Below are positions 78 through 37,368 of a stretch of 42,018 nt of DNA, in pieces. Both the position numbers and the translations under genes were made by a program. This DNA comes from Candidatus Uhrbacteria bacterium. GTDB taxonomy: Bacteria; Patescibacteriota; Patescibacteriia; UBA9934; GWF2-40-263. The stretch is taken from positions 1 through 42,018 of the forward strand of contig JACQXU010000048.1 of the NCBI GenBank assembly GCA_016208545.1, read 5' to 3'. Within the stretch, counting starts at the first letter, position 1, and each line of letters opens with the position of its first letter. The notes beneath the pieces were generated by a model. The model was not told the origin of the DNA and did no database searches. It saw only the letters and a list, made by a program, of their open reading frames with translations.

Positions 78-3000
78 TTATGTCACTTTCACATTTTGTC
101 TTCCAACGAGTGATGTAATTTCATCTACTAACGAATCAGAAATCAAAACAGAATAATCAGTTTCAATTTGCCGAACACGGCCGCCTGATTCAACCAACAA
201 ACAAACCGATGTCGAACCCGGAGAGTGTTGCAACAAATTTCTCAATTGAGACACCAGTTCTGGAGTTGGTTTGCCTTGAAGCGCTATCGAAAGCGTTCCG
301 GATTGTAAAGGAGGCTCTTTCACGATTTCATTTGTCGGTTCCACCCATTGATTTTCAGAAAGCATTTTCTCGAGTTTCAAAAGTTGAGAATCGTTATAAA
401 CAATTAAACTATTTGCGAGCAAACTCATTTCTCCGTTTCTGCGAGAAACTTTTGCGCTAACGAGCATGAGCTTATCAACTTGCAAATTTTCCTTTGCTTT
501 TTCATAAACTTCCGGAAATAAAACTAATTCTATCGCGCCTGTTGTGTCTTCGATTCCGACAAATGCCATTTGATCGCCTTTTTTGGTAACTATTTCCTTG
601 ATAGAAGTCACAATGCCTGCACATTTAACAACGCGATTATTTATTTGCTCTTTCATTTTTCCACATTGCACAAGAAATTTTCCAAAAACATTTGCGCTTT
701 GTTCAAATGGATGAGCGCTTAGATAAAGACCAAGCAATTCTTTCTCCCACGAAAGAATTTCATGCATTTCTGCTGATGGTGTTTCGCGCAAAACAATCGC
801 GGAGTCCATTACGGCAGGCGAGAATGAAAATAAACTTTGCTGATTGGAAGATTTTTCTTTTTGAATAGTTTTGTTGTGCATTAAAATTCGATCAACATTT
901 TCAAGGAGCTGACGACGTTCGCCAAAACGATCCAGAGCGCCGGATTTTATCAAAGCCTCAAGCGATTTTTTGTTAAACGCGTGATGTGAAACCCGACCTG
1001 CAAAATCGGACAAATCTTTGAACGGTCCATTCTTTTTTCTCTCCGCAATTATCGCATCAACAACTTCCTCTCCCAAATTTTTGACAACAAGCAAACCAAA
1101 ACGAATTTGAGTGTCGTTCATGAAAGTAAAATCCTTCCGCGATTCATTTATGTCAGGAGGCAAAACAGCAATTCCGAGACGTTTGCATTCATGAACTGCT
1201 TCTGCGATTTTTTCCAAGTCCCCAACTTCGGCAGTCATAAGAGCCGTCATGTATTCGGCTGGAAAATTCGCTTTCATGTACGCTGTTTGATACGCGACCA
1301 TTCCATAACTTGCGGCATGGCTCTTATTAAATCCATATGCGGCGAACGGTTCGATAAGTTTCCAAAGTTGTCGAGCTTTGTCGTCAGAAAGTCCGTGCGC
1401 AACAAATCCCTCAAGCAATTTTATTTTTTGCATTGCCATTTCAGCTGGAATTTTTTTGCCCATTGCTTTGCGCAACTTGTCAGCTTCGAGCCAGGAATAT
1501 CCTGCCAGATGAATGGCTGTGAGCATGACGTCGTCCTGATAAACCAAAAGACCGTACGACTTTTTCAAAATCGGTTCCATGCGAGGATCAAGAAATGAAA
1601 TAAGCGACGCGTCGTGTTTGCGTTTTATATATTCCGGAATTGATTCAATTGGACCAGGACGATAAAGCGCAACCATTGCCATTAAATCTTCCACTCGTTC
1701 AGGTTTCAAATCCGTAAGATATTTTGTCATCCCTTCTCCATTCAACTGAAACACACCCATTGTGTGACCTTTTGCGAGAAGATTAAAAGTTTTTTTATTA
1801 TTGATCGGAATGCGCTCAATATCAATTTCAATTCCTTTCAATTTTTTAACAAGCGCGATCGCGTCTCCCAAAATCGATAAATTTCGGATTCCGAGAAAAT
1901 CTATTTTTACCAAACCTGCTGTTTCAACAGCGTGCATTTCATATTGTGTGATTATTTTTCCTTCGCGAGTGTCAATTTGAAGAGGAGTAAAATTTGTAAG
2001 ATCAGTCGGCGCGATAACTGTTCCAGCGGCGTGAATTGAAACATGACGGCTACAACCTTCAATTTGTTTCGCAAGATCAATAATGCGACGAACGTTTGCG
2101 TCTGTGTCGAATTTCTTTTTGAGATCTGGAGATTCATTAAGCGCACGAGTCAAAGTCATTGGAAAACCTTGCGAACCCATCGGAACTAGTTTTGCAATTT
2201 CATCAACCATTGAATATGAAAATCCGAGCGCGCGTCCAACATCGCGAACAGAACCGCGCGCGAGCATCGTTCCAAACGTACAAATCTGCGCGACTTTTTC
2301 TTGGCCGTATTTTCCACGAACGTAATCCAAAACTTCGTCGCGTCGGTTATCAGCAAAATCCGCATCAATATCCGGCGCTGACGGACGTTCTGGATTCAAA
2401 AAACGTTCAAACGGCAATTCGTAAGTTAAAGGATTGATGGATGAAATTCCAATTCCATAACTCACAAGCGAGCCTGCGGCAGAACCGCGCGTGGTTGTTG
2501 CGATTCCATTCGCGCGCGACCAGTTGATAAAATCAGAAACAATCAAAAAGTAAGGACAGAAACCTTTTTTATCAATAATCTCAAGTTCATACGCAAGACG
2601 TTTTTTCATAACGTCCGTTAGCGCGCCTTCTTTTTCTTCAAGTTGCTTTTCTGCGCGCTGTGTTAAAACTTGTCTGAATGTTTGTCCTTCTGGAATTTCG
2701 TATTTAGGGAAATTCCATTTTCCAAGTTCAAGTTCAAGCTGACAGCGATCAGCAATTCGGCGCGTGTTTTCAATCGCCTCTGGAACATCTGAAAAACGTT
2801 CCTCCATACACTCTTTACTAACCATTGACGCGTCATAATCATACGGATTGATTCTTTCAAAGTGTTCAAGTGTTTTTCCTCCTTTGATACAATTCAAAAT
2901 TTTCCAAGCTTCGGCATCTTGCGGTTTGATATAAAAAGTATTTTTCGTTGCCACAATCGGAACATTCATTTTTTTTCCAAGTTCAATCAGTTGAAAGTTT

Positions 3001-3515
3001 GCGCTTTCTTGTTCTGCAATTTCTGGACGATCAACGAGTTCAAGAAAAAAATTTCGTTCACCAAATATCTCGACGTACTCTGAAATAAGCTGTTTATCAA
3101 TTTCTGATGAAAGCGCAATCAATCCTTTTGAATGCTGACGCAAAACTTCCAAATCAATTCTTGGTTTGTAATAAAAGCCTTCGATAAATCCGATCGAGGA
3201 AAGAATAATCAAATTACGATATCCTTCTTCATTTTGTGCAAGGCAAACAAGACGAGAAGGTTTTGTGTCAATGTGCGCGCGTTTTAAATGACGTCCTTCG
3301 CGCGAAAGATAAAAATCAACCCCGATGATTGGTTTAATTCCGGCTTCTTTTGCTTTTTGATAAAACTCCATTGCGCCGTACATTGCGCCGTTGTCAGTAA
3401 GCGCCACAGAATCCATACCACAATTTTTGACATGAGAAATAATCTCTTTGATTTTCGGAAGAGCCTCGAGAAGAGAATAATGTGAATGGGTATGAAGGTG
3501 GACGAAGGAGGACAT
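78..3515 (-). CDS. dnaE: DNA polymerase III alpha subunit (DnaE)
   Basis: About 1145 aa. N-terminal PHP motif (VHLHTHSHYSLLEA), polymerase core, C-terminal OB region. Start moved to the ATG at 3515, because the 32 upstream codons of the track ORF are read through a 9-bp tandem repeat (FRPFGLFQPFRPF). Confidence 0.96.
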   Translation of the reverse strand: MSSFVHLHTHSHYSLLEALPKIKEIISHVKNCGMDSVALTDNGAMYGAMEFYQKAKEAGIKPIIGVDFYLSREGRHLKRAHIDTKPSRLVCLAQNEEGYRNLIILSSIGFIEGFYYKPRIDLEVLRQHSKGLIALSSEIDKQLISEYVEIFGERNFFLELVDRPEIAEQESANFQLIELGKKMNVPIVATKNTFYIKPQDAEAWKILNCIKGGKTLEHFERINPYDYDASMVSKECMEERFSDVPEAIENTRRIADRCQLELELGKWNFPKYEIPEGQTFRQVLTQRAEKQLEEKEGALTDVMKKRLAYELEIIDKKGFCPYFLIVSDFINWSRANGIATTTRGSAAGSLVSYGIGISSINPLTYELPFERFLNPERPSAPDIDADFADNRRDEVLDYVRGKYGQEKVAQICTFGTMLARGSVRDVGRALGFSYSMVDEIAKLVPMGSQGFPMTLTRALNESPDLKKKFDTDANVRRIIDLAKQIEGCSRHVSIHAAGTVIAPTDLTNFTPLQIDTREGKIITQYEMHAVETAGLVKIDFLGIRNLSILGDAIALVKKLKGIEIDIERIPINNKKTFNLLAKGHTMGVFQLNGEGMTKYLTDLKPERVEDLMAMVALYRPGPIESIPEYIKRKHDASLISFLDPRMEPILKKSYGLLVYQDDVMLTAIHLAGYSWLEADKLRKAMGKKIPAEMAMQKIKLLEGFVAHGLSDDKARQLWKLIEPFAAYGFNKSHAASYGMVAYQTAYMKANFPAEYMTALMTAEVGDLEKIAEAVHECKRLGIAVLPPDINESRKDFTFMNDTQIRFGLLVVKNLGEEVVDAIIAERKKNGPFKDLSDFAGRVSHHAFNKKSLEALIKSGALDRFGERRQLLENVDRILMHNKTIQKEKSSNQQSLFSFSPAVMDSAIVLRETPSAEMHEILSWEKELLGLYLSAHPFEQSANVFGKFLVQCGKMKEQINNRVVKCAGIVTSIKEIVTKKGDQMAFVGIEDTTGAIELVLFPEVYEKAKENLQVDKLMLVSAKVSRRNGEMSLLANSLIVYNDSQLLKLEKMLSENQWVEPTNEIVKEPPLQSGTLSIALQGKPTPELVSQLRNLLQHSPGSTSVCLLVESGGRVRQIETDYSVLISDSLVDEITSLVGRQNVKVT

Positions 3516-3529
3516 AAAAGAACCGAGAG

Positions 3530-3583
3530 GTCTGAAAAGTCGGAAAGGTCTGAAAGGTTGGAAAAGGCCGAAAGGTCGGAAAG
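3530..3583. repeat. Six tandem 9-bp units (GTCTGAAAG / GTCGGAAAG variants)
   Basis: Direct reading: gtctgaaaa gtcggaaag gtctgaaag gttggaaaa ggccgaaag gtcggaaag. The same unit occurs inside pheT at 5835-5861. Confidence 0.9.
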
Positions 3584-3628
3584 GAAGACAGAATGAGGTT
3601 ACCATTTTCAACCTGAGGAATCAAAAAA

Positions 3629-3682
3629 CGCAGGTTTAAGCCCGCGCCTATAACGTAACGCAGGCTAAAGCCTGCGGCTACC
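3629..3682 (-). terminator. Two tandem palindromic hairpin repeats (family R1), likely intrinsic terminators for the 3686-3997 gene
   Basis: cgcaggtttaagcccgcg and cgcaggctaaagcctgcggctacc. On the minus strand the second-transcribed hairpin is followed by TTTTTT. Same family as 28026-28050 and 35829-35853. Confidence 0.6.
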
Positions 3683-3685
3683 AAT

Positions 3686-3997
3686 TTATTTTCTGCTCTT
3701 TTTCGTCTTTTCCAACCGTTTTTCAACCAGATACTCCACTCCTTTTGCCGCAAGCCCCACAACAGTTCCAAGAGATGAAGTTGCGGTCTCAAACTTTGCC
3801 TGAATACCGGAAAGCGCTGATTCAACTTTGTGCATTACTTCCCTTCCTTCATTCATTGTGTCATTTACATTTCGCAACATTGATGCCATCTGCCACAAAA
3901 GCCAAAAAATCGCGGCCGTGAGCCAAAGCGCGCAGAAAGCAAGAACGATGTAAAGTATATCAAGTGGCGAAAACATAGTTTGCTTAACATCTGACAT
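3686..3997 (-). CDS. Small membrane protein (one N-terminal TM helix plus a helical tail)
   Basis: 103-aa ORF with an ATG start. Hydrophobic segment ILYIVLAFCALWLTAAIFWLLW, then an amphipathic region. Lies between pheT and dnaE on the same strand. No family assigned. Confidence 0.6.
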   Translation of the reverse strand: MSDVKQTMFSPLDILYIVLAFCALWLTAAIFWLLWQMASMLRNVNDTMNEGREVMHKVESALSGIQAKFETATSSLGTVVGLAAKGVEYLVEKRLEKTKKSRK

Positions 3998-4011: not shown

Positions 4012-6450
4012 TTATGATCTAAGTATAGCATTAAATTCTTCTTTCAGCACACGGCGGATTTTTTCAACTTCATTATCAACTTCTTTTGATTCAAGTGTTC
4101 GTTCATTAGACCGAAATGACAAATGAATCGCGAGAGATTTTTTTCCTTCGTCAACACCTTTGCCTCGATAAACATCAAACAATTCAATTTGTTCAAGAAG
4201 TGTTGAAATTTTTCCTAACTTCTCTTCGATCATTTTGTATTCAATCTTTTCATCAAGAACAAACGCGAGATCACGTTTCACTTCTGGAAATTGTGGAATC
4301 GGTTTGAATGATTTAACCGATGTGTATTTCGAAAAAAAATCTTGCTCACGAATGTCAATCAAAACGCAAGCAGAATCCAAACCAAAATTTTTTACGAACA
4401 TGTCGCTAACTTGCCCAATTTCGCCAACATAATTTTTACCTATAGAAATTCCTGCAAGACGGCCATCGTGATAATGCGCGATGTAGTCAGCCGGATCGCG
4501 TGAACGTTCGAGTGACCAGTCGTTGATTCCTAGTTCTCGCATCAAACGCGCAAGCGCTCCTTTTGAGCGCAAAAATAATTCACGTCCATCTTTTCCATAG
4601 CAAGCCATCACTAGATTCAGTGGTTCGTCTGGGAGATCGCCTTTTTTTGGAATGTAAACTGGAGCGATTTCAAACAAATCTGCTTCTGGAAAACGATGCT
4701 GATTTTGTTCAACTGTTGTAAGCATGCTTGGAACAAGAGAAGGACGCATGAATTCAAATTCACTGCTAAGTGGATTACGCAAAACAATCGCGTCTTCTTT
4801 TTTTATTCCGTATTCAGTGAGCTGTTTTTCGGAAAAAAATGAATATGAATATACTTCTGTAAAACCAGCGCCTTTCAAAATTTCTCTTGTTCGACGCTGA
4901 AACTTTATCGCTTGATCTTCTTGAATTAATTGAATTTCACCAGACGGAAAAATAGAAGGAAAATTTTCATACCCATGCACGCGAGCGATCTCTTCAACAA
5001 AGTCAACAGGAGCTTCAATATCGTGATCGCGCCAATAAGGAACAGTAACAGAGAAAGTCATGGAGTCGTGGAGTCGTGGAGTCGTGGAGTCATTCTGATT
5101 CACAACAAACCCGAGTCGCTCCAAAATCTCAATCATCTTTTTGTCTTCCATTTCAATTCCCATAAGTTTCCTAGCTTTCTGCGTATCAAAAGGAAATACG
5201 CGTGGTTCGTAAGACTTTGCTTGTTCTGTAATGATTAATGAAGCAACACGTCCTCCTGTCAATTCCGTGATGAGTTCGACAGCTCGCGCAATAGCTGGTT
5301 CTATCGATTCTGTTGAAAGACCTTTTTCAAACAATAACTGCGAATCAGAATACAAATTCAAAGCGCGCGCTGTGCGTCGAACAGAAACAGGATCAAACGT
5401 CGCGCTCTCAATCAAAACACGCGTTGTGTTTTCTGTTGTTGCTGTTTCTTCTCCACCCATTACTCCAGCAACTGCGATTGGTTTTTTCACATCTGCAATC
5501 ACGAGCATATCGTGACTAAATTCATAAGTTTTTCCATCAAGCGCTTTCATCTTCTCACCTTTTTTTGCTTTGCGAACAATAATTTTTTCACCATCAAGTT
5601 TGTCAGCGTCAAACGCATGAAGCGGCTGACCGTATTCGTGCAAAACGTAATTTGTGATATCAACAACATTATTTATCGGGCGATGTCCGGCGAGCAGTAA
5701 ACGTTTTTGCAACCACCATGGCGACGGCCCGACTTTAACGTTCTCAATCAAAATTGCAGAATACTTCGGACAAAATTCTGGCTCTTTCACTTCAATCCAA
5801 CCACGGCTAAAGCCGTGGGCTACTTCTTTTCCTCCTTTCAGACTTTTCAGACCTTTCAGACCTTTTCCCGTCACAACCGCTCCTTCCCTCGCCTGCCCGA
5901 TAATACTCATGCAATCAACACGATTACTCGTCACTTCAATATCAAAAATAGTGTCGTCAAGTTCAAGCGCTTTCGCAATTGACGTTCCGGGTTTTGCAGA
6001 AGTAAGTTCTGTTATATCCCAAATCTCATGATATCCATGTGGCAATTTTTCAAAACCGATTTCCTCAACAGCGCAAATCATTCCAAAACTTTCAACTCCG
6101 CGAATTTTTGTTTTTGCAAGTTCAACCAAATCCCCTTCTCCATGCCATTTAACTTTTGCTCCAGGGAGTCCTACAACAACTCGTTGTCCTTCTGATAAAT
6201 TAACCCCGCCGCAAATTATTTCCACTGTTTCTTTTCCAATATCCGTTTCAGCGATTTTTAATTTATCAGCGTTTGGATGCGGTTTCACTTTTTTTACAAA
6301 CCCAACAACCATTTTTTCAAAACGTTCAGAAAGACGATCAATTCGTTCAACAGAATTTCCGACAGCAGTTGTTTCCTTCGCAAATTTTTCCGGCGAAAAA
6401 TCGGTGTCGAGATATTCTTTAATCCAATTGTAGGAAATGAGAATGTTCAT
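4012..6450 (-). CDS. pheT: Phenylalanine--tRNA ligase beta subunit
   Basis: 812 aa. N-terminal tRNA-binding OB domain (HPNADKLKIAETDIG), B3/4 and B5 regions, C-terminal anticodon-binding domain. Starts 3 nt after the pheS stop. Confidence 0.96.
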   Translation of the reverse strand: MNILISYNWIKEYLDTDFSPEKFAKETTAVGNSVERIDRLSERFEKMVVGFVKKVKPHPNADKLKIAETDIGKETVEIICGGVNLSEGQRVVVGLPGAKVKWHGEGDLVELAKTKIRGVESFGMICAVEEIGFEKLPHGYHEIWDITELTSAKPGTSIAKALELDDTIFDIEVTSNRVDCMSIIGQAREGAVVTGKGLKGLKSLKGGKEVAHGFSRGWIEVKEPEFCPKYSAILIENVKVGPSPWWLQKRLLLAGHRPINNVVDITNYVLHEYGQPLHAFDADKLDGEKIIVRKAKKGEKMKALDGKTYEFSHDMLVIADVKKPIAVAGVMGGEETATTENTTRVLIESATFDPVSVRRTARALNLYSDSQLLFEKGLSTESIEPAIARAVELITELTGGRVASLIITEQAKSYEPRVFPFDTQKARKLMGIEMEDKKMIEILERLGFVVNQNDSTTPRLHDSMTFSVTVPYWRDHDIEAPVDFVEEIARVHGYENFPSIFPSGEIQLIQEDQAIKFQRRTREILKGAGFTEVYSYSFFSEKQLTEYGIKKEDAIVLRNPLSSEFEFMRPSLVPSMLTTVEQNQHRFPEADLFEIAPVYIPKKGDLPDEPLNLVMACYGKDGRELFLRSKGALARLMRELGINDWSLERSRDPADYIAHYHDGRLAGISIGKNYVGEIGQVSDMFVKNFGLDSACVLIDIREQDFFSKYTSVKSFKPIPQFPEVKRDLAFVLDEKIEYKMIEEKLGKISTLLEQIELFDVYRGKGVDEGKKSLAIHLSFRSNERTLESKEVDNEVEKIRRVLKEEFNAILRS
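5061..5091. repeat. 8-bp tandem repeat (TGGAGTCG x about 3.9) inside pheT
   Basis: tggagtcg tggagtcg tggagtcg tggagtc. It translates in frame as DSTTPRLHDS within PheT. Confidence 0.9.
5801..5861. repeat. Composite repeat inside pheT: R1-like hairpin plus three 9-bp units
   Basis: ccacggctaaagccgtgggctac (5801-5823), then ctttcagac ttttcagac ctttcagac (5835-5861). It is read in frame as KGLKGLKSLKGGKEVAHGFSRGW. Confidence 0.85.
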
Positions 6451-7511: not shown

Positions 7512-7592
7512 CATTGCGAAGGAGCGCCAGCTACCGAAGCAATCTCTTTGCTTAGATTGCTTCGTCGTCACTGCGTTCCTCCTAGTAATGAC
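7512..7592. repeat. Palindromic element of about 80 bp (family R2)
   Basis: cattgcgaaggagcg...cgaagcaatctc...agattgcttcg...agtaatgac. Second copy at 18349-18427. Internal inverted repeat CGAAGCAATCT/AGATTGCTTCG. Confidence 0.8.
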
Positions 7593-7597
7593 ACGGA

Positions 7598-8707
7598 CTA
7601 AATGAATGATTTTATCGCTCCTAATATCTCATCTCCAAAATTTACAAAATCTTTATAAGTTACAAGAACGACAAGAACCATAAGTAATAAAAATCCAAAA
7701 TTGTGAACTGCGGTTTCTATTTTTACATTCACATTTTTTCCTCGGAACTTTTCGATGACCAAAAAAAGCAAACGTCCGCCGTCAAGCGCTGGAAATGGAA
7801 GAACATTTATAACAGCAAGGTTGATAGACAACAGCGCAGTAAATTGCAAAAGATGAATGAGCCCAAGCGCCGCGACTTGTCCTGTCAAAACCGCGATCCC
7901 GACTGGTCCTGAAAGATCAACTCCAACTCCTTGTCCCGAAATCAAATTTGCGATTATTCCAATGAACGCCGCTACAATCGCGAACGTCAATTCGCCAGTT
8001 GTGAGAATTCCTTGCCAAATTGACTGAAAGAAAGGATACGACACAAAACCAGTTAATTCAAATCCAAGTCCGATACCGATAATTTCCGTGCCTTCAAGCG
8101 GCTCTGAAGTTAAAACGAATGTTTTGTACGACTCGTCTTTTGATTGTGTTACAAGTTCAATTCCGCTTAAACCTTTTTCTGAAATATGGTCTCTTGCGTC
8201 TTGTGCTAAATCGAATACGCGTCCGTCAATTGAAACTATATTGTCACCTTCGTTTACTCCTGCTTCTTTTGCGGGAGATTTTTCTAAAACAGTCATTATT
8301 GTGAGTTTTGATTCTTCAACACGAGCGGATTTTGGCAAATTTTCATCAACGATGCTTGGCAAACCAACCATAAATCCAATTGACAAAAAAATTGCGGCGA
8401 GCACGAGATTCATTGCAACTCCAGCGATGAGAACCGAAAATCTCTGCCAAATTTTTTTTGAAGCAAAACTGTCTGAATCTTCTTTGTGATCGCCGGATTC
8501 GCCTTTTATTCTCACAAATCCTCCAAGCGGAATCCAGTTGATGGAATAGACTGTGTCGCCTTTTTTTATTCCGAATAATTTTGGTGGAAACCCAAATCCA
8601 AATTCTTCAACTTTCATTCCAGTTTTTTTCGCAACCAAAAAATGCCCGAGCTCGTGAACGAAAACGAGCAAAGATAAGACGATGATAAACAATAAAATGG
8701 TTCCCAT
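7598..8707 (-). CDS. rseP: M50 family site-2 (RIP) metalloprotease, RseP-like
   Basis: HELGHFLVA zinc motif in the first TM helix, PDZ-like middle region, C-terminal NVLPFPALDGG motif. The ATG at 8707 is preferred over the TTG at 8731. Confidence 0.9.
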   Translation of the reverse strand: MGTILLFIIVLSLLVFVHELGHFLVAKKTGMKVEEFGFGFPPKLFGIKKGDTVYSINWIPLGGFVRIKGESGDHKEDSDSFASKKIWQRFSVLIAGVAMNLVLAAIFLSIGFMVGLPSIVDENLPKSARVEESKLTIMTVLEKSPAKEAGVNEGDNIVSIDGRVFDLAQDARDHISEKGLSGIELVTQSKDESYKTFVLTSEPLEGTEIIGIGLGFELTGFVSYPFFQSIWQGILTTGELTFAIVAAFIGIIANLISGQGVGVDLSGPVGIAVLTGQVAALGLIHLLQFTALLSINLAVINVLPFPALDGGRLLFLVIEKFRGKNVNVKIETAVHNFGFLLLMVLVVLVTYKDFVNFGDEILGAIKSFI

Positions 8708-9657: not shown

Positions 9658-10857
9658 TTATTTGATGATCCGTACAAAATGTCTTTTTCCTTTCTGAATA
9701 AGAACGCCTTCTTTTGTTGGTTTTACAACCTGCTCCAAATCTTCAACTACTTTTTCATCCAATTTAACTCCGCCGCCTTCAATCAATCTCCGCGCGTCGG
9801 ATTTTGATTTTGCAATTCCCGAATCAACTAAAACATCAACGATCAACATTGCTGATGCAATTTTGTGTTCTGGAATATTTTCCGGAATCTCGTGTTCTTT
9901 AAACATTTGATCAAACTGATCGCTTGCGGCTTGTGCTTCTTTTTCTCCAAAATATTGCGCGACAATTTCACGAGCAAGTCGCGCTTTCAAATCGCGCGGA
10001 TTAACGCCACTTTTTATTTCTTTTTCAATCGGTTTGAGTTCAACATCAGTCAAAATTTCAAACCCTGGCAAAATCATTCCATCAGTCCAACTCATAATTT
10101 TACCAAACACTTCATCACTCGAATCCGAAAGTCGAATCATATTTCCTTCGCTCTTCCCCATTTTCTTTCCAGTTGGATCTTCAAGAAGTTTATTTGCAAT
10201 CACAAACTTTTCTTTTCCTTTCATTGCTTTCATAAGTGTTCGACCGGCAAGCATGTTGAAAGTTTGATCGTTTCCGCCGACTTCTCCATCAACATCCATC
10301 GCAACACAATCATAACCTTGCATGAGCGGATAGAGAAACTCGTGCATATAAATATCTTTCCCATCTTTTATTCTTTGTTTGAACATGTCTCGCGCTAACA
10401 TTTGCGGAACAGTAAAATGTGCCGCGAGTTCGACAACCTCCGTAAAACTCATTTTTCCAAGCCACTCACTATTATATTTGAGTTCGACTGAATTTTTCCC
10501 TCCAAAATCTAAAATTTTTCCAGCTTGTTCTTTATATTTTTCTGCGTTTTTCAAAACTTGCTCGCGAGTTAGTCGAACACGAGTTGCAGATTTGTCAGTT
10601 GGATCGCCAATCATTCCAGTAAAATCGCCGATCAATAAAATAATCTTGTGCCCAAGTTCTTGAAACTGACGCAACTTCCGAAGCTGTATTGAGTGACCGA
10701 TATGAAGATCTGGCCCAGTTGGATCAATCCCGAGATAAAGCGAAAGCTGTTTCCCCTCTTTCAAACGCGCTGACAAAAACTCGCGCGAAGGAAAAATATT
10801 TTCCACTCCACGCGTCAAAAGCGCTTCAATTTTTTTTGGATCTGTGTCTATTGTCAT
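9658..10857 (-). CDS. tyrS: Tyrosine--tRNA ligase
   Basis: 399 aa. Class I HIGH motif (PDLHIGHS), KMSKS-type motif (KKMGKS), C-terminal S4-like domain. Confidence 0.96.
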   Translation of the reverse strand: MTIDTDPKKIEALLTRGVENIFPSREFLSARLKEGKQLSLYLGIDPTGPDLHIGHSIQLRKLRQFQELGHKIILLIGDFTGMIGDPTDKSATRVRLTREQVLKNAEKYKEQAGKILDFGGKNSVELKYNSEWLGKMSFTEVVELAAHFTVPQMLARDMFKQRIKDGKDIYMHEFLYPLMQGYDCVAMDVDGEVGGNDQTFNMLAGRTLMKAMKGKEKFVIANKLLEDPTGKKMGKSEGNMIRLSDSSDEVFGKIMSWTDGMILPGFEILTDVELKPIEKEIKSGVNPRDLKARLAREIVAQYFGEKEAQAASDQFDQMFKEHEIPENIPEHKIASAMLIVDVLVDSGIAKSKSDARRLIEGGGVKLDEKVVEDLEQVVKPTKEGVLIQKGKRHFVRIIK

Positions 10858-10870
10858 AAACGTAAAAAAA

Positions 10871-11611
10871 TTAAAGTTGTGATAACCAGTTTCTAATCAC
10901 TTTTTTTGTATCCTCTGGTCCTTCAACAGCGATCGTTTCGATTCCCGTACGTTTAACCGGTTCATCATTGCCGCCTTCGTACAACGCGTCCCCGACGAAA
11001 ATCATCTTGTGAACGTCGATTTTTAAATGTTTTTCCATTTCGCCAATGCCATATCCTTTGTCGATTCCTTTCATTGTAACATCAATTGAAGATTTTCCTG
11101 GAACCTTAATTTCAAACTCTGGAAGATATTCTTTTAATCTCCCAACTATTTCCCATCTACGATCTGCCGATGATCCTTTGTAGGCATCTTTGAGTTCAAT
11201 TGGGGCTTGTTGACCTAAAGCGGAAAACGTTATTTGCGTGCCGCGATCTTCAATTACTTCCCCATAAACAGTTTTTGGATGTTCGTACCCGATATCTTTG
11301 AAGGCCATTCCAAACGCTTCCTTGATTTTTACACGCTGTTCCAATGAAAGTTCGTGCGCGTACACTGTCTTCCACGCCCCATTTTCATAACGCAAAAACC
11401 TCGCGCCAGAAGTTGGAAACAACAACAATTTAGGAAAAAGATGCTCATGACCTCGAAGACTGACTAAAAGTTGAACTTCAAACACAGGAAACCACCCGCC
11501 TCCAATAACGGCTACAATGCGTTTTTACAACAATCTTGAAAAGAGATAAACCATTTCAGCATCCATTGGAGTTTTGCTTCTGGCCAATGTCCCATCAAGA
11601 TCAAAAACCAT
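10871..11611 (-). pseudogene. HAD-IIB family hydrolase (phosphomannomutase-like) interrupted by one in-frame TAA
   Basis: My translation upstream of the track ORF gives MVFDLDGTLARSKTPMDAEMVYLFSRLL*KRIVAVIGGGWFPVFEVQ. The catalytic DLDGT motif is separated from the rest by the TAA at 11525-11527. The C-terminal part has the GDALYEGGND motif. Confidence 0.75.
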
Positions 11612-18348: not shown

Positions 18349-18427
18349 CATTGCGAGGAGCGAAGCGACGAAGCAATCTCTGCAAACTAGGAGATTGCTT
18401 CGCTCCCTTTTGGTCGCTCGCAATGAC
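18349..18427. repeat. Palindromic element of about 80 bp (family R2), second copy
   Basis: cattgcgaggagcgaagcgacgaagcaatctc tgcaaactagg gagattgcttcgctccc...cgctcgcaatgac. The ATG chosen for the next gene (18423) lies in the terminal caATGac. Confidence 0.85.
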
Positions 18428-19940
18428 AAACAGAATTACTGTTTTGTTAATTTTGCTTTTCATTATTCTCATACCAACTCGCGTATTCGCGGCTTCGACT
18501 TGTTATTGTTATTTCGGTGAAAAAAATGATTGCGCACAAACTTCTGTCAGTGAAAATGCAACAGTCGACGAATGCAACCTCGCGTGTGAAACAAAATATC
18601 TGGAAATTTTCAAAGGCGCTGATTTTTCAGATCAGGCAGGAGGAGCGAATGACGCGGCTGCTTTGTCAAATTGTTCTTCCGCTCACGAATCCGCCAATGA
18701 AGTTGAAGAAAAACCATTTCAGGGCGGAGTTCTTCCAAAATTGAATGTTGATATTCCGACTGTTACTTTTACACCAGTACTTCAGAAAGGCGGTAATTTG
18801 GAAATCAACTTTTTGGGAAATTATATCCAAGGTCTTTATATTTATCTAATCACAATTTCCTCCGTGATCGCTGTAGTTTTTCTCATGATAGGAGGTTTGA
18901 AATGGGTTTTGGCCGCAGGCGGCGCTTCAAGCATCGCATCAGCAAAAACAATGATCAAAAATGCCGTGATTGGACTTGTTTTGCTGTTGAGTGTTGTTTT
19001 GATTCTCGAAACAGTGAATCCGCAACTTGTAACATTTGATCCGTTTACGATCGAACGAATCCAGAAAATCGAAGCTGGTGAATCGTTGCATGCGGAAGAA
19101 AACTCCGCAGAAGAACCATATGAACCAATTACAACAACACCAGTTACACAAGGAACACAAGTAACTTTGCCGTATTCAGATGGAGGCAGATTAAAAATGG
19201 AGTATATTCAACTGCCACTTGCGTCTGGAGATGAGTATATTACTCCACCGCGCGCATGCACAATTCCAGTTCCGTCTGAATTAGTTTCATTAAGTGGTGT
19301 TGAAATAAATCCAAAATTTCTAGGAAATTTAGATTGTAATATTTCGTCATCAACAAAAAATAAAAAACGTCCTGATAGTCAAATTCAAATGATTGTTCTT
19401 CATCAAGGTTTCAAAAGTGATAGTGGACAAAATGGAGCTATGTGGTTTCAGGATTATCACTACGGAAAAATAGTAACCTGTCAAAAAAGTAAATCTGGAT
19501 TGTTTAATTACAAAGCCTGTCAACGAAACGGACAAAAATTTGTGTCTCAACCAACCAAGAATCAAACACCTGTTTCCAGTCATTTTGCTGTAACTTTAGG
19601 CGGAACCATCTATCAACTCACTGATGTTGGTCATATAACAAATAACTGTGGGGGTTGCGGAACAAACAAAATAGGAATTGGAATAGATCTTCAATATTCG
19701 ACAGAAGGAGAAAAAAATGTTTATTCAGACGCACAATACGAAAGTGTCGCAAAACTAATTAAAGGATTAAGTGAAAAATACGGATTCCAAATTAGTGACA
19801 GCACGATCAAAGGGCATTGCGAGGTTGGGAAACATTCGGATCCGCCAAATTACGACCTTAAAAAACTTGGTCAAAAAATTGGAGTAACGCTTGATCCTGG
19901 CCAACACGGAAGTTCACAATGTAGTTGGATTTCTAACTAA
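18423..19940 (+). CDS. Secreted Cys-rich domain + T4SS-pilin-like two-helix membrane domain + amidase_2-like (N-acetylmuramoyl-L-alanine amidase/PGRP) domain fusion
   Basis: Signal peptide MTNRITVLLILLFIILIPTRVFA. Cys-rich module CYCYFGEKNDC..C..C. Two TM helices ending in ETVNPQL, which resembles the TrbC/VirB2-type pilin family common in CPR. The C terminus has an amidase-like pattern (MIVLHQG, SSHFAV..GGTIYQL, IGIDL, IKGHCEV). Start set downstream of the R2 repeat. Confidence 0.65.
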   Translation: MTNRITVLLILLFIILIPTRVFAASTCYCYFGEKNDCAQTSVSENATVDECNLACETKYLEIFKGADFSDQAGGANDAAALSNCSSAHESANEVEEKPFQGGVLPKLNVDIPTVTFTPVLQKGGNLEINFLGNYIQGLYIYLITISSVIAVVFLMIGGLKWVLAAGGASSIASAKTMIKNAVIGLVLLLSVVLILETVNPQLVTFDPFTIERIQKIEAGESLHAEENSAEEPYEPITTTPVTQGTQVTLPYSDGGRLKMEYIQLPLASGDEYITPPRACTIPVPSELVSLSGVEINPKFLGNLDCNISSSTKNKKRPDSQIQMIVLHQGFKSDSGQNGAMWFQDYHYGKIVTCQKSKSGLFNYKACQRNGQKFVSQPTKNQTPVSSHFAVTLGGTIYQLTDVGHITNNCGGCGTNKIGIGIDLQYSTEGEKNVYSDAQYESVAKLIKGLSEKYGFQISDSTIKGHCEVGKHSDPPNYDLKKLGQKIGVTLDPGQHGSSQCSWISN

Positions 19941-27425: not shown

Positions 27426-27976
27426 ACACCTTCGATTCTAGCGAGTTCAAGCAAAATTTCTTGATTTTCAACACTAACATTTTGTGGCGAATCTTTTGCA
27501 ATCTCTCGCTGTGTGTTCAGACGTATTTCTGCCGTGCCATTTACTTCGTCCATTTTTTCAACATTAACGATAAGGACAATTGTTGTCACACCATAGTACG
27601 TTTCAGGAAGAGTTGAATTTTCGATCATGACTTCTGTTTCCTGTGCAAAAGTATCTGTCATGAGCGGAAGTACATCAATCAAATTTTGAAAATTTGCTTC
27701 ATTTGAATAACTCCCATATCGCTCAGTGAAAATTTTCGCAATCGTAATAGCGCCAGCCGATTGATTTCGCGTGTCTTGTTCCTGTTTGAGCTGTTGTTCT
27801 TTTAGAGTTGGTTCTGATTCTGTTGTTCCTTCGGTAGTTTGTGGCGTTTCAACCGATGGTTCTGTTGAAGGCGATTCATCTGACTTAAACAAAAACCATA
27901 ATAACCACAAAAGCAACAATAAAAGAACAATAATAATCAAACCAATAACTGTTAAGCGCATTTTTCGTGTTGTCAT
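27395..27976 (-). CDS. Membrane-anchored protein with an NTF2-like C-terminal domain, candidate VirB8/TcpC-like T4SS component
   Basis: 193 aa. One TM helix (LTVIGLIIIVLLLLLLWLLWFLF), a Ser/Thr/Glu/Pro-rich linker, then a domain of about 120 aa ending in EILLELARIEGVWKVASADWL, typical of NTF2/Tim44-like folds. ATGA overlap with the virB4 stop. The assignment is inference. Confidence 0.45.
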   Translation of the reverse strand: MTTRKMRLTVIGLIIIVLLLLLLWLLWFLFKSDESPSTEPSVETPQTTEGTTESEPTLKEQQLKQEQDTRNQSAGAITIAKIFTERYGSYSNEANFQNLIDVLPLMTDTFAQETEVMIENSTLPETYYGVTTIVLIVNVEKMDEVNGTAEIRLNTQREIAKDSPQNVSVENQEILLELARIEGVWKVASADWL

Positions 27977-29985
27977 AATACTTCTTTAGATTCTTTTTCA
28001 ATATCAAATTCCTCCGCTCCGCTTTGCGCAGGCTGAAGCCTGCGGCTACCGTCTTCTTTTGTCTCCTCCAGCTTTTTCTCCGCCTCATCAAATTCCTTTT
28101 TTGCTCGTTCAATTTCGATCAACTGCTGTGGACTAGTTGTAACAAGCTGATCTTCTGTGTACGAAGCAACAACTTTAATCGCCGCGTGTTTTTGTCCAGC
28201 AAAGAAAATCCCCTCACCAACTCCAGATTCGAGCAAAAGATATTTTTCTCCATCTGTTAAATTGAAAGTTTTTTGAATAAGTTCAACTGCAGACGGTGAT
28301 TGTTTGAGTAAAAGTTGAAGAGCAGAGTTCGTGACAATCGCCTGGCCATAAGGTGAACGCAAAAAGTCGTTTACATCTTGTGTGATTGTTGTAACACCGA
28401 GCCAATACTTTCGCGCGCGTTTAACAAGCGCGAAAATAAATTTTGCTGAATCTTCGTTTGTCATCAGCCACCATGCCTCATCAATCACGAGAATTCTTTT
28501 CTTGCGTTCACTGCGTGTAACATTCCAAATGTAATTTACGATAGTGTAAATTCCAACCGGCCGCAATTCATCTTCCAAATCTCGTACAGAAAAAACAACA
28601 AGCTGATTTTTCATTTCAACAGTCGTTGGAGAGTTGAGGAGTCCTGCAAACGTTCCATCAGTGTATTTTTTCAACCTCGCAACAATCGCTTCAGCGCCTT
28701 CCATTCCTTCCAAAACATCTTGGAAATCCTGCATAATAGGCGGTTCGATATCTGCAAGTGTTGTGAGATCTGCTGTAATATCTTTTTTCGCGTATGTTTC
28801 AATGAGCGCGCGATCGAGAATCGAATCTTCCTCTGGTGTAAATCCGAGTTTACCTTCTTCTCCAATCGGCGTGCCAATCATAATTCGAAGTAAACCTTTG
28901 AGAGTGATGACGGCACTTCGAATAATATCATCAACTTTGGTTCCCTCTCCCACAGCTCGCGGCAAATCAAATGGATTCACTTTAGCCTCTGACGCAAGAG
29001 AAACATTGATGTACGTTCCACCAACTGCGTCTGACAAATGTTTATATTCCATTTCCGGATCAATCACAATAACGTCGGTTCCCATCATGAGCGAACGCAA
29101 AATTTCCAGTTTGATAGCATAAGATTTTCCGGCTCCGGAAGTTGCAAACACAACTGAATTTGCATTTTGCAAACTAAAACGGTCAAACAAAATTAAAGAA
29201 TTGTTATGACGATTGATTCCAAAAAGAATTCCGTTGTCTGAAGTTAAATCTGAACTAATGAATGGAAAAGAAGCTGCGATCGGAGACGTGTTCATGTTGT
29301 AATTGATCACGAGCTCATCGTTTCCAAGCGGAACAGTTGAATTGAAACCTTGTTCAGCTTGATAAAATCCAGCTTTTGTATAAATAAGTTTGCTTCCAAA
29401 AATTGCTTCAACTTCTGAACTGAAACGATCAAGTTCTTCTTCGCTTTTGGCATAAATTGTAACGTAAAAAGCGAATTGAAAAAAATGCTCTATGCCTTGA
29501 GTGATCGCATCGCGCAGTGCTTCGATGTCGCGAAGCGCCGTTTCAGCAAGTGGATCTCGAGGTGCGCCTTTTTCCGCGCTTCCAAAAATTTGCGCTTCAA
29601 GAACACCAACTTTTTTCTGAAGCTGTTTGAGGATGATGTTTGCTTTGAGTGGATAAAAAAACATTGCAACATCAAATGTTTTGTTCAGATTGATGAGCGA
29701 CGCAGACCATCCGAGTCCGATGTGGCGAGGATATGTAATAATAAAAATCGTGCGCACATAAACTCCGGAAAGCAAAAGCGAACGTGGCCGAACTTCAAAC
29801 GCGGCCGGTGAAATGATGTCTTTCACTGTTACGACGCCTTTGTGATAAATGCGCTCCTCTTCAAGAAGTTCGCGCTCTTTTTTGAGCGCTACTTCTTCCG
29901 GTTTGACTTTCTGCTCTTTTGGCGGAGGAGGCGTTGGAAGTGATTCTTTAATTTTTCCGATTTCGATAGCCATATTATTAGTCAT
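27973..29985 (-). CDS. virB4: VirB4/TraC-like type IV secretion ATPase
   Basis: 670 aa. Walker A VFATSGAGKS, Walker B RILVIDEAWW, and a VirB4-like N-domain pattern (YVRTIFIITYPRHIGLGW). Confidence 0.88.
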   Translation of the reverse strand: MTNNMAIEIGKIKESLPTPPPPKEQKVKPEEVALKKERELLEEERIYHKGVVTVKDIISPAAFEVRPRSLLLSGVYVRTIFIITYPRHIGLGWSASLINLNKTFDVAMFFYPLKANIILKQLQKKVGVLEAQIFGSAEKGAPRDPLAETALRDIEALRDAITQGIEHFFQFAFYVTIYAKSEEELDRFSSEVEAIFGSKLIYTKAGFYQAEQGFNSTVPLGNDELVINYNMNTSPIAASFPFISSDLTSDNGILFGINRHNNSLILFDRFSLQNANSVVFATSGAGKSYAIKLEILRSLMMGTDVIVIDPEMEYKHLSDAVGGTYINVSLASEAKVNPFDLPRAVGEGTKVDDIIRSAVITLKGLLRIMIGTPIGEEGKLGFTPEEDSILDRALIETYAKKDITADLTTLADIEPPIMQDFQDVLEGMEGAEAIVARLKKYTDGTFAGLLNSPTTVEMKNQLVVFSVRDLEDELRPVGIYTIVNYIWNVTRSERKKRILVIDEAWWLMTNEDSAKFIFALVKRARKYWLGVTTITQDVNDFLRSPYGQAIVTNSALQLLLKQSPSAVELIQKTFNLTDGEKYLLLESGVGEGIFFAGQKHAAIKVVASYTEDQLVTTSPQQLIEIERAKKEFDEAEKKLEETKEDGSRRLQPAQSGAEEFDIEKESKEVL
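28026..28056. repeat. R1 palindromic repeat embedded in frame in the virB4 3' region
   Basis: gcgcaggctgaagcctgcggctaccgtcttc matches 35829-35859 in 30 of 31 positions. It is translated as EDGSRRLQPA. Confidence 0.9.
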
Positions 29986-35439: not shown

Positions 35440-37368
35440 CTACGGGTTGCACTCGTTTGCAGTCCCGATTTTGAGCAAGGCAGAGCAACCAGATGCCGGG
35501 CCTCCAGGAGCGGACCACGTTGTTAGATCGAACGTTGTGTAGATAACTCCTTTGTAGATGATCTCGATGCTCGCGTCTGGGTCGAGGCTCGCAGTGATGC
35601 CGTTCCCGGCACAGAGCCAGGAAGTGGCAGGGTTGCCTTCACTCACATTGAGCCGGAAACCGCAAATTCCATCCGGAACCTGCTCGAACGAAAGAGATAC
35701 GTCGTTGTCAGAATCGAATTCTGACTTGTCCCACCAACCGCCAAGATCTGACTTTTGGTAATACGCCTGAACGTTAAGTGTCCGAGGCGCAGAGTACGGA
35801 TAGGTCACGATGAAAGAAACGGAGTCAAGCGCAGGCTGAAGCCTGCGGCTACCATCTTCTTCAGCCTCTTCAGCTTCTCCAGCTTCTTCCTTGAATCCAG
35901 CCATTTCGATCTCACCAGTGTCGTCTTGGTCAATGTACGGTTCATCCTTGGCCACAAGCATGGAATGGCCGCAGGTTGTCACGACTTCGCTTGAAATGCA
36001 GTATATGCCGCTCGCGCAATCGCCAACGACCTTTTGCACAGCAAGCACGACACCGCTGTCAACTTCGATGATCGGTCGCTCACCGAAACCGAGCAGAGTA
36101 AACGTGTGCCAGTCCTTGATCGGCATGGCGACATTTTGTTCAGCAACATACACGTCGCTCTTTGTATACTCTTTGATCAGAGTGCCATTTCGAAACTGCG
36201 CCAGACCGTCTTTCTCAGGCCAGTTCGAAAGATATGAATTCGACCAGTCAACGATTGGCGGAGGATCCCACGTGTAATACGAAAGTCCCCAGGAAGAAAG
36301 GACCGATTCCCAGCCGATCTCGTCTACTTTGATTCTGTACCGATTCCACTGGTTGGCGAGTCCATTCAACAGCCAAATCTGACCGAGCGGATCTCGAACA
36401 GCCTTGACAAATCCGGCATCGGAAATGTCAACGCCTTTCTTGTAACACGCCAGCTCTTCGTCAGAGATGATCACGAGATCCGAGAAGTCGTAGCCGAGGC
36501 TCCAGAACACGTTTTCGTTCGTGATCCATCGAACCTCGCCGTTTGAGATCAGATAGACTTTCGAATCATGCGCGGTCTTCACGAGAGTGCCGTCCGGATG
36601 CGAAAGCGCAACCGGAAGCGCGGACGTGTAATACTTGCCAACAGGCTCATCATCACCCTTTTTGCCGGTTCCAAGTCCACACACGAACTGTTCGCTTTCG
36701 AGCGTCTTTTCTTCACCGGAAGAATCGGAAACGACGTATGTCGCAGGAACCGACTCGCCGTTTTCTGCCGGAAGAGTCGCGTCGCCTTTGTGAAGGCCGA
36801 CGTGAACGTGGTCGCCGGTGCATTTTCCAGTACAACCTTCGATTCCAATCAGCTGTCCGACCGCAACCTCGCACCCGTCGCAGACGATAATCTCGTCCAA
36901 GTGCGCGATCACGACGTAATAGCCGTTTCCGAGGTCAATACAGACGTGATTTCCGAATCCACTTCCGGTTGCCGCGAAAGTGTGGACGTACGCGTATCCG
37001 GAAACTGACGCATACAGCTCCCAACGTTCGACGTTTGAAGTGTCGAAGTCGAGATCGTTCGCAGTGCTCTTGAGGTAGTGGGTGTACTCGCCGCCAGCGC
37101 CCTGCGTGCACAGAATCGTCATGCCGTTCGGCAGAGGAATCTGCAACACGATTACACCTCCTCCGCCCTTGTTGCTGTTGTCTCCCTTGTTGCTGTTGTG
37201 GTTGAAAGGTTCGACCGACTGCTCACTCGTCTTCCCTGGCAAGTCGTCCTCATCAAGATCATGAGAGGACCCGCCACTTTGAGTATTCCTCGGAACCCGA
37301 ACGCACGCGAAGATGGAACACGCGACCAGAATTTGCAGCAACTTACTGCTAGAGAACTTGGTGAACAT
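35440..37368 (-). CDS. M23 (LytM-type) peptidoglycan endopeptidase, probable lipoprotein, with a large C-terminal extension
   Basis: Lipobox-like ILVAC. M23 motifs (THYLKSTANDLDFD; FGNHVCIDLGNGYYVVIAHL; GCTGKCTGDHVHVGLH). GC-rich: 55-58% in two 60-nt lines I counted. Confidence 0.8.
   Translation of the reverse strand: MFTKFSSSKLLQILVACSIFACVRVPRNTQSGGSSHDLDEDDLPGKTSEQSVEPFNHNSNKGDNSNKGGGGVIVLQIPLPNGMTILCTQGAGGEYTHYLKSTANDLDFDTSNVERWELYASVSGYAYVHTFAATGSGFGNHVCIDLGNGYYVVIAHLDEIIVCDGCEVAVGQLIGIEGCTGKCTGDHVHVGLHKGDATLPAENGESVPATYVVSDSSGEEKTLESEQFVCGLGTGKKGDDEPVGKYYTSALPVALSHPDGTLVKTAHDSKVYLISNGEVRWITNENVFWSLGYDFSDLVIISDEELACYKKGVDISDAGFVKAVRDPLGQIWLLNGLANQWNRYRIKVDEIGWESVLSSWGLSYYTWDPPPIVDWSNSYLSNWPEKDGLAQFRNGTLIKEYTKSDVYVAEQNVAMPIKDWHTFTLLGFGERPIIEVDSGVVLAVQKVVGDCASGIYCISSEVVTTCGHSMLVAKDEPYIDQDDTGEIEMAGFKEEAGEAEEAEEDGSRRLQPALDSVSFIVTYPYSAPRTLNVQAYYQKSDLGGWWDKSEFDSDNDVSLSFEQVPDGICGFRLNVSEGNPATSWLCAGNGITASLDPDASIEIIYKGVIYTTFDLTTWSAPGGPASGCSALLKIGTANECNP
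35829..35859. repeat. R1 palindromic repeat embedded in frame in the M23 peptidase gene
   Basis: gcgcaggctgaagcctgcggctaccatcttc, translated as EDGSRRLQPA in an acidic linker (EEAGEAEEAEEDGSRRLQPALD). Confidence 0.9.

Follow-up and report, generated by a model that had tools for sequence, protein, structure and literature searches.

The window analysed here, a stretch of 42,018 nucleotides from a Candidatus Uhrbacteria genome, carries a T4SS-like cluster in which two genes on the minus strand contain the same short palindromic repeat. One encodes a VirB4-like ATPase (TraG P-loop/AAA_10; ORF 27973-29985, 670 aa) and the other a protein of the M23 peptidase family (ORF 35440-37368, 642 aa). Within the ATPase gene, the repeat, GCGCAGGCTGAAGCCTGCGGCTACC(G/A)TCTTC, occupies 28026-28056 (minus strand, with the GTAG foot on the coding strand and a TTCA loop) and falls in the part that encodes the C-terminal tail; in the M23 peptidase gene, it lies at 35829-35859 (minus strand), in an acidic linker between the conserved N-terminal part and the C-terminal domain. 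The two copies are identical at 30 of 31 bases. Read on the minus strand, both give the peptide EDGSRRLQPA, which corresponds to residues 644-653 of the VirB4-like protein and approximately to residues 504-513 of the M23 peptidase, and the surroundings are Glu-rich in both proteins. The first-pass annotation had reported a repeat matching at 30 of 31 positions, its translation as this peptide within acidic segments, and a 7-bp GC-rich stem; all three descriptions hold, the stem being CGCAGGC/GCCTGCG around a 4-nt loop. The 51-nt contexts have minimum free energies of -14.8 and -16.2 kcal/mol, which are unexceptional when compared with shuffled sequences (z = -1.1 and -0.4). An intrinsic terminator can be rejected for the in-gene copies, as the mRNA-strand sequence after them (GCAAAGCGG and GCTTGACTC) contains no U-run.

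Further copies are present in the same window, where the 16-nt core, allowing up to two mismatches, was found at four loci (eight strand-hits) against 0.01 expected from 100 shuffles. A stem variant occupies 5802-5824 on the minus strand, within the gene for the phenylalanyl-tRNA synthetase beta chain (PheT; 4012-6450, minus strand). It consists of GTAGCC, CACGGC, the loop TTTA and GCCGTG (on the plus strand CACGGC, TAAA, GCCGTG and GGCTAC), is translated in frame as VAHGFSRG and is placed in the linker preceding the B3/4 domain. The hairpin that had been noted in pheT as a relative of the repeat is a third in-frame insertion. Two other copies form a tandem intergenic pair on the minus strand: a consensus copy with the loop TTTA at 3660-3682, immediately 3' of the ORF 3686-3997, and a degenerate copy at 3626-3652, upstream of dnaE (78-3611). 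The earlier suggestion that the hairpins at 3629-3682 look like terminators stands for the degenerate copy, which is followed by a T-run and has a terminator-like score, but not for the consensus copy, which has no T-run.

Counted over the whole 0.8-Mb genome, the unit occurs at approximately 25 to 30 loci as GGTAGCC followed by a GC stem of 6 to 7 bp that closes a TT(T/C)A loop. In essentially every copy here, and in those of the relatives, the foot GGTAGCC (GGCTACC on the other strand) stands immediately before the stem, and it stays constant while the stems vary in a compensatory manner (GCAGGC/GCCTGC, GCGGGC/GCCCGC, GAAGGC/GCCTTC and CACGGC/GCCGTG here, and at least six stem types across the genomes compared). 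Some copies are arranged as inverted dimers (C25 33642/33678, C43 17858/17900 and C43 21248/21284) or as double-foot palindromes (C11 4171-4200 and C42 22923-22952). Most copies are intergenic and near the 3' ends of genes, and their number is low for REPs; about 70% of them fall outside long open frames, in a fraction that makes up roughly 10% of the genome, leaving an intragenic share of about 30%. In 19 of 25 copies, the GTAG strand coincides with the G-rich strand (p = 0.015), a bias that is confounded with gene orientation.

Besides the genes in the window, at least seven others in this genome contain coding copies. The host genes, which include those for PheT, the ribonucleotide reductase (RNR), ribosomal protein S1, a UvrD-like helicase and a glycosyltransferase, are unrelated and share no theme. 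In-gene copies are translated in three frames, which differ by gene. On the GTAG strand, the first frame reads G-S-R-R-L-(TAG or CAG)-P-A and is open solely with the TTCA loop, which supplies CAG (Gln); the usual TTTA loop places a TAG there. Both the VirB4 and the M23 copies have TTCA. Furthermore, four of the seven copies with a TGAA loop (TTCA on the GTAG strand) are inside genes, in the GSRRLQPA frame. The second frame, V-A-x-G-F-S-x-x, is always open, and the third is shut by the TAG within GGTAGCC. A TAAA-loop (TTTA) copy at C56 14587 provides the TAG stop codon of a DUF2304 gene.

These reading frames bear on whether EDGSRRLQPA is an ancestral or convergent peptide under selection at the protein level, with the palindrome being incidental. 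Two proteins do share the peptide, a third has the similar EDSRRLQPT, and the RNR copy has synonymous changes in both stem arms. However, the unit is read in three frames across genes, and its DNA, including the untranslated-looking GGCTACC foot, is common to about 20 intergenic copies. The peptide is also missing from close and distant orthologues, whose alignments effectively refute this explanation; we regard it as very improbable.

The orthologues were compared chiefly with those of two sister species of the same genus (G001 and G002), whose VirB4 proteins are 91 to 93% identical to the one described here. The insert is absent from the VirB4, M23 and PheT sites of both, with homology continuing on both flanks, and the M23 insert is absent from ten more distant orthologues as well. 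At the PheT site, the sister species have unrelated sequence that is 3 aa shorter. Since these same-genus orthologues lack the insert, the VirB4, M23 and PheT copies are best read as lineage-specific insertions into hypervariable linkers, as the first-pass annotation had suspected for the first two. The AlphaFold model of the VirB4 site (29 orthologues) was poor (mean pLDDT 51, pTM 0.26), residues 646-670 being coil with pLDDT < 50; the flexible-linker reading of this site leans on the hypervariable, Glu-rich orthologue alignments and not on the structure model. Other copies have a different history. The RNR copy is common to this genome and G001, a glycosyltransferase copy appears as GSHKLQPA in G002, and another relative, G019, acquired a VirB4-tail copy independently, in a different frame. 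The VirB4 tail and the RNR linker have been struck independently in different genera. The older copies are shared with relatives or decayed; the VirB4 and M23 copies appear recent.

A 31-mer repeat could, in principle, lead to a chimeric join in a metagenome assembly, and this genome is a draft of 57 contigs. We consider such an artefact to be a negligible risk, because both sides of each copy are collinear with the G001 and G002 orthologues, no contig terminates in a REP (as might be seen with a collapsed REPtron), and in-frame copies of the same kind occur in related genomes from other assemblies.

The same comparison weighs on a second possibility, raised in part in the first-pass annotation, that the hairpin was recruited within the message to serve the T4SS-like operon, for instance as a ribosome pause or RNase site or by stabilising the mRNA. 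This would account for the presence of two copies in one operon (the gene cluster is co-directional, and 7.8 kb separates them), and it agrees with the predicted stable 7-bp GC stem and with the general view of intergenic REPs as RNA elements, as given in PMC3733652. Nevertheless, both copies are missing in sister species with closely similar VirB4 proteins, the unit is also found in the unrelated genes named above, and the folding energies of the contexts are ordinary. Such recruitment therefore seems improbable.

The family to which the repeat belongs is present in 13 of 41 relatives, with further compensatory stem types, while a reversed control pattern gave no matches. This genome has about five times as many copies as the sister species. 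Five relatives (G001, G002, G003, G006 and G007) possess HUH/Y1 genes of 159 to 183 aa with the motifs (MP)DH[LI]H and YILxNP, and inverted copies of the unit stand on both sides of these genes; in G001 and G002, the RAYT gene is bracketed by the CACGGC stem type, that of the PheT copy. Three of these proteins were checked against NCBIfam NF047646 (REP-associated tyrosine transposase), and those of G001, G003 and G007 scored 89.7, 92.0 and 94.7 bits, respectively, over a cut-off of 80. In a distant phylum, a homologous HUH/Y1 gene on a Kapaibacterium contig adjoins the same repeat. The proposal that a REP-like hairpin was inserted in frame, on the same strand and without breaking two ORFs is thereby both upheld and sharpened, the element being a GTAG-type REP whose copies in relatives flank RAYT genes. 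A GIY-YIG/Ssn partner was rejected, as it is another palindrome family (GTCATTGCGAGG...CGAAGCAATC), and not the GTAG unit, that flanks the GIY-YIG gene at C13 23521-23976.

In the genome under study, no RAYT or Y1 transposase was found by a six-frame search with Pfam PF01797, by an HMM of the relatives' RAYTs (E <= 10) or by tblastn, in an assembly that is 92% complete. The pilD-ligA site, occupied by a RAYT gene in the two sister species, stands empty in this genome. Likewise, G019 has no gene of the 159-183-aa HUH/Y1 size class, and both genomes are rich in near-identical copies. About two thirds of the copies in G019 are intragenic, nearly all of them read as (E/K)VAPGFSLG, and they share flanks (GAAGA|unit|GCGAAGAGGT, including the common 3' flank); in the present genome, GAAGAY precedes the unit in the VirB4, M23 and RNR copies. 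Moreover, a comparison of filled with empty sites indicates replacement and not clean insertion of the unit: the VirB4 site has a net gain of 15 nt relative to G002, the PheT site a gain of 9 nt, and the M23 site is net shorter, with unclean junctions in low-complexity DNA. The missing gene, the replaced sites and the shared flanks speak for a rival view, in which the copies are derived from REPs but were not placed by a RAYT, having arisen instead by gene conversion, template switching or microhomology-mediated copying of other REP copies into Glu-codon-rich (GAAGA) linkers, or by the action of an unrelated enzyme. We hold this to be unlikely, though it is the strongest of the alternatives considered. 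Five relatives and one distant phylum have RAYT genes bracketed by the unit, which is the defining REP/RAYT arrangement, and the incompleteness of the assembly also weakens the argument from a missing gene. Unclean junctions, for their part, are expected because the linkers are so variable.

It is highly probable, in our judgement, that the 31-nt repeat is a GTAG-type REP and that its VirB4, M23 and PheT copies arose in this lineage. New copies would arise by RAYT-type processing of single-stranded DNA, probably at the replication fork. Those that fall within genes would survive only where a further 8 to 10 residues are tolerated, where the net change in length does not shift the frame, and where the frame in use is free of stop codons. 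Most probably, the inserts ride along as neutral passengers, their translation yielding short flexible loops, and no function is implied for either the peptide or the RNA hairpin. A further idea is that some REP subfamilies in these ultra-small bacteria are specialised for coding sequence, with sense-strand insertion preferred at GAAGA runs of Glu codons, by which orientation and reading frame would be fixed. The intragenic share and the GCGAAGAGGT flank in G019, GAAGAY in this genome, the repeated hits in linkers and the genomes lacking a detectable cognate RAYT are in keeping with this specialisation, which we put forward tentatively as possible but doubtful.

The insertions represent orthologue-verified selfish DNA by which essential proteins (PheT, ribonucleotide reductase, ribosomal protein S1 and VirB4) have gained residues. 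This has happened in a genome that has hardly any room between its genes, where the survival of the insertions appears to be governed by the reading frame and a single loop base. Annotators of CPR-type proteins should expect GSRRLQPA, VAxGFSxx, RRLKPAAT and stop codons donated by REPs, and should not take them for motifs. Besides, a high intragenic share in one bacterial family, together with an identical 23-mer across many phyla, makes the repeat family well suited to research on REP dispersal.

The TnpA Y1 transposases of IS200/IS605 elements are HUH enzymes that recognise a hairpin in single-stranded DNA and target the lagging-strand template. A single-strand mechanism of this kind predicts a strand bias such as that observed here, where gene orientation is a confounding factor. 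Unlike IS200/IS605 elements, the repeat unit contains no transposase, and the comparison of sites yielded neither clean junctions nor a target tetranucleotide. The Ssn-related hairpin motif belongs to a different sequence family from the GTAG unit.

A parallel is offered by the palindromic elements of Rickettsia (RPEs; Ogata et al. 2000, as summarised in PMC10969869), which are likewise selfish palindromes translated in frame within numerous genes of a reduced genome, genes that are unrelated to one another and often essential. Classical RPEs, however, are about 100 to 150 bp long and encode a conserved peptide of approximately 30 to 50 aa, whereas the present unit has 23 to 31 nt and encodes 8 to 10 aa; it therefore does not belong to the RPE-1 type. 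Two short elements, RPE-4 and RPE-6, are counted among the REPs in PMC3733652 and assigned there to the CGTC super-family, the sister of the GTAG one.

The closest match is with the GTAG-type REPs and their RAYT/TnpA-REP proteins, as described by Nunvar et al. (2010, PMC2817692), Di Nocera et al. (2013, PMC3733652) and Quentin et al. (2018, PMC6006769). The likeness covers the GTAG foot beside a short GC-rich hairpin, the tens of dispersed copies that lie mostly just 3' of genes, the inverted dimers and double-foot forms, the bracketing of an HUH/Y1 gene in relatives, the patchy distribution and the occurrence of the unit in distant phyla. The differences are the lack of a detected RAYT in this genome, the empty site relative to the sister species, the number of about 30 copies and the ultra-small, CPR-type host; a limited literature search found no REP/RAYT publication on CPR or Patescibacteria. 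The accessible part of the 2013 report makes no statement that we could find on a stop-avoiding loop variant. The intragenic share also differs, from about 30% here and two thirds in G019 to at most 7.5% among loci from other phyla with the same unit. Di Nocera, De Gregorio and Rocco (2013, PMC3733652) describe GTAG and CGTC REPs that lie wholly within known genes, keep the frame and are thought to occupy flexible linkers or loops, as well as REP ends that donate TAG stop codons. Their host genes include those for tRNA synthetases, UvrD-type helicases, DNA polymerase I and TruB, classes that recur here and in relatives. Since intragenic GTAG REPs were already published in 2013, the repeat described here is a further example of a known phenomenon.

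The two 31-nt stretches at 28026-28056 and 35829-35859, described in the first-pass annotation as one palindromic repeat translated in frame in two genes, do occur at these positions with a single-base difference, and both give EDGSRRLQPA when translated, each within a minus-strand ORF. The first ORF (27973-29985, 670 aa) is called VirB4-like because it matches the TraG P-loop, AAA_10 and DUF87 families; here the peptide falls at residues 644-653, twenty short of the C-terminus. The second (35440-37368, 642 aa) has a Peptidase_M23 domain at residues 120-196 and carries the peptide at about residue 505, within a Glu-rich stretch. Allowing up to two mismatches, the 16-nt core GCAGGCTNAAGCCTGC matches four loci in the window, against 0.01 expected from dinucleotide-preserving shuffles. 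Both copies share the stem CGCAGGC/GCCTGCG with a four-base loop, and the predicted folding energies of their 51-nt contexts (-14.8 and -16.2 kcal/mol) are unremarkable relative to shuffles.

The window corresponds to C36 among the 57 contigs of the assembly (817 kb, 41% G+C, 92% complete). Genome-wide, the unit, a 6-bp stem, T(A/G)AA, the returning stem and GGCTACC, is found at about 25 to 30 loci. On the opposite strand it reads GGTAGCC-stem-TT(T/C)A-stem, so that the tetranucleotide GTAG stands at the hairpin foot. Foot and loop are invariant and the stem changes are paired (GCAGGC/GCCTGC, GCGGGC/GCCCGC, GAAGGC/GCCTTC, CACGGC/GCCGTG). Inverted dimers with spacers of 13 to 19 nt occur at three loci, and perfect "double-foot" palindromes (GGTAGCC...GGCTACC) at two. 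The unit was found in 13 of 41 related genomes, with additional compensatory stem types, and a reversed control pattern gave zero matches. The GTAG strand coincides with the G-rich one for 19 of 25 copies (p = 0.015), a bias that is confounded with gene orientation but would fit an IS200/IS605-like insertion into single-stranded DNA that is specific for one strand. The intergenic hairpins at 3629-3682 had been described as looking like terminators; one degenerate copy (3626-3649), where a T-run follows the hairpin, does resemble one, and no other copy does. Another hairpin family (GTCATTGCGAGG ... CGACGAAGCAATCTC), unrelated to this one and more abundant, was also seen, often in inverted pairs, at window positions 7535-7600 and 18369-18440 and at about 45 further loci, such as contig C13 28856 and 29514 inside ileS; its palindrome flanks a GIY-YIG gene at C13 23521-23976.

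Three same-family relatives have small Y1-domain genes at the sites of unit clusters. At these loci, the Y1 ORFs span 159-183 aa, carry the motifs MPDH[LI]H and YILxNP, and are each bracketed by inverted copies of the exact unit. Three Y1 proteins tested (from G003, G007 and the same-genus relative G001) scored 90 to 95 bits on NCBIfam NF047646, "REP-associated tyrosine transposase" (RAYT), whose cut-off is 80 bits. Both same-genus relatives, G001 and G002, carry a RAYT-type gene that has a prepilin-peptidase-like gene on one side and ligA on the other; the units flanking it have the CACGGC stem, as does the window's pheT copy. In the present genome this pilD-ligA junction is an empty site, where the stop codon overlaps the next start codon; the Y1 domain has no match in the 92% complete assembly, and tblastn and a dedicated HMM found no RAYT remnant anywhere in it. 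At the same junction (contig C3, about 10700-10900), ligA is apparently short of about 25 N-terminal codons with a changed frame (MTEKDVKQRIQKLKILIAKY, then out of frame), which may reflect a true lesion, an alternative start or a fault in the assembly. Most relatives also have Y1-domain proteins of a different class, about 290 aa long, whose genes the unit does not flank.

Together, the foot, paired stems, dimers, double-foot forms and bracketed Y1 genes are the features that define GTAG-type REPs and their RAYTs, as characterised by Nunvar et al. 2010 (PMC2817692), Di Nocera et al. 2013 (PMC3733652) and Quentin et al. 2018 (PMC6006769). In a scan of one genome per species, the exact 23-mer GCAGGCTNAAGCCTGCGGCTACC occurred on at least 120 contigs from many phyla, in some genomes several times (loci L054-L133); the matches listed include Nitrospirota, Omnitrophota, Planctomycetota, Desulfobacterota, Ignavibacteria, Acidobacteria, Clostridia, Patescibacteria and others. 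This cross-phylum identity is unusually strict conservation for a REP sequence. Among the same matches, a RAYT homologue adjoins the repeat in Kapaibacterium (E = 8e-47 against a three-sequence profile).

Orthologue alignment, as the first-pass annotation had proposed, supports insertion over an ancestral motif, as the VirB4, M23 and PheT proteins of G001 and G002 lack the unit. VirB4 identity among 40 relatives is 69-93%; the proteins of G002 and G001 (91-93% identical) have the same tail with the unit absent (...EETKED-GSRRLQPAQS-GAEEFDIEKESKEVL in the present genome, ...EVKEEVEKE-GAEKFDIEKEAKEL in G002), and the gene downstream is collinear. In the M23 protein the unit sits in a linker that varies in length and sequence across every genome examined, followed by a conserved C-terminal domain; it is absent from both same-genus orthologues and ten others. 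The PheT copy (5802-5824) reads KE-VAHGFSRGW-IEVKE, immediately ahead of the B3/4 domain, where G001 has KEDDDRFT-IEVKE and G002 RGRDKKFT-IDVKE. The collinearity of both flanks with orthologues makes a chimeric assembly join behind the copies very unlikely. That the RNA hairpin has a regulatory role in these messages is possible but unsupported, since close relatives do without it. Net length at filled sites is +15 nt in VirB4 and +9 nt in PheT, while M23 is shorter; as these are not clean unit insertions, the junctions do not disclose the insertion mechanism. The copies differ in age: that in a B12-type ribonucleotide reductase (RNR) is common to this genome and G001 (EEGSRRLQTA) and absent from G002, and that in a family-4 glycosyltransferase is decayed in G002 (GGTAGCCATAAGCTTCAACCTGCG, GSHKLQPA) and absent from G001. 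G019, of another genus, has its own VirB4-tail copy in a different frame, read VAPGFSLG.

On the GTAG strand, frame one reads G-S-R-R-L-x-P-A, where x is a TAG stop with the common loop TTTA and CAG (Gln) with TTCA; the second (V-A-x-G-F-S-x-x) is always open, and the third is closed by the TAG within GGTAGCC. The opposite strand can be read through as R-R-L-K/E-P-A-A-T or as Q-A-K/E-A-C-G-Y, its third frame being stopped by TAA or TGA. The TGAA/TTCA loop is present in seven copies of this genome; four of these lie in genes and in the GSRRLQPA frame. Their hosts are VirB4, the M23 peptidase, the glycosyltransferase (C25 13763) and RNR (C48 8676, gene C48 8039-12361, read EDSRRLQPT); a TTTA copy in a DUF2304 protein (C56 14587) ends it as ...EFGSRRL-TAG. 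The VAxGFS frame is used in PheT, a UvrD-like helicase-nuclease (C1 10128) and the ribosomal protein S1 tail (C21 2907). A solute-binding protein (C51 14604) has a lipoprotein signal peptide whose charged beginning (MKRQFRRLKPAVTIVF...) is supplied by the RRLKPA frame. The RAYT genes of G003 and G007 are also flanked by TTCA-loop units; since such units occur outside genes, the variant need not have arisen after insertion. Besides its REP copy, the RNR gene has an apparent intein-like insert (ending ...VVHNC), and its inter-domain linker was hit independently in G019 (L240), in a different frame.

When a single open-frame criterion is applied throughout, long frames contain 7 of this genome's 23 strict copies, against 9 of 120 at the other-phylum loci among the matches listed (Fisher p = 0.005). 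Coding sequence is nevertheless strongly depleted of copies, since long open frames cover about 90% of the genome. Internal shares are higher in G019 (about 14/21) and G007 (about 9/18). Pfam domains were present in 8 of 10 host frames tested, namely TruB, ValRS, DNA polymerase I, TrmD, two envelope proteins, a solute-binding protein and an O-antigen ligase. The ValRS host (L239, G019:C5:86483-89530) contains an entire inverted dimer, translated in frame as GSPRLQPGP-GLKPEATS, which lies between its catalytic domain and its anticodon-binding domain. Nearly all internal G019 copies read (E/K)VAPGFSLG within Glu-rich repeats. They have the flank GCGAAGAGGT in common, and it is missing at an intergenic copy; about two thirds of its CCAGGC-stem copies lie inside genes, flanked as GAAGA/unit/GCGAAGAGGT (L228, L230-L236, L238, L240). 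These copies are set in 9-nt-periodic Glu-Val-x repeats (GARGTNNNN) similar to the REP head GAGGTAGCC. Across the three genomes, the sense strand of internal copies is the GTAG strand in about 25 cases and the opposite in about 6, whereas stop codons alone would favour the opposite strand or neither.

The data show directly that the repeat belongs to this family, that it is associated with RAYT in relatives, that its presence in variable linkers is specific to the lineage, and which frames can be read. Beyond this, we infer that the copies were produced by RAYT-type single-strand processing, that those persisting would be the in-frame, stop-free ones in tolerant segments, and that the resulting peptides are probably neutral loops. 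Against RAYT-made copies, the enzyme is missing from this genome and G019, though both hold many near-identical copies; indeed, these two have the most such copies, yet no RAYT of the 159-183-aa class.

Our literature search found no relevant paper on REP/RAYT in CPR bacteria. Intragenic REPs were known beforehand, and the present case is a well-documented one. Di Nocera et al. 2013 (PMC3733652) report GTAG and CGTC REPs wholly within known genes, argue for their siting in flexible linkers, describe TAG stops donated by REP ends, and name tRNA synthetases, UvrD-type helicases, DNA polymerases and TruB among the hosts. In-frame REPs within RAYT genes and double-foot REPs were described by Quentin et al. 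2018 (PMC6006769). The Rickettsia RPEs are the classic, longer analogue of an in-frame palindromic repeat. In comparison with these systems, the possibly new element is that some REP subfamilies appear specialised for Glu-rich coding linkers.
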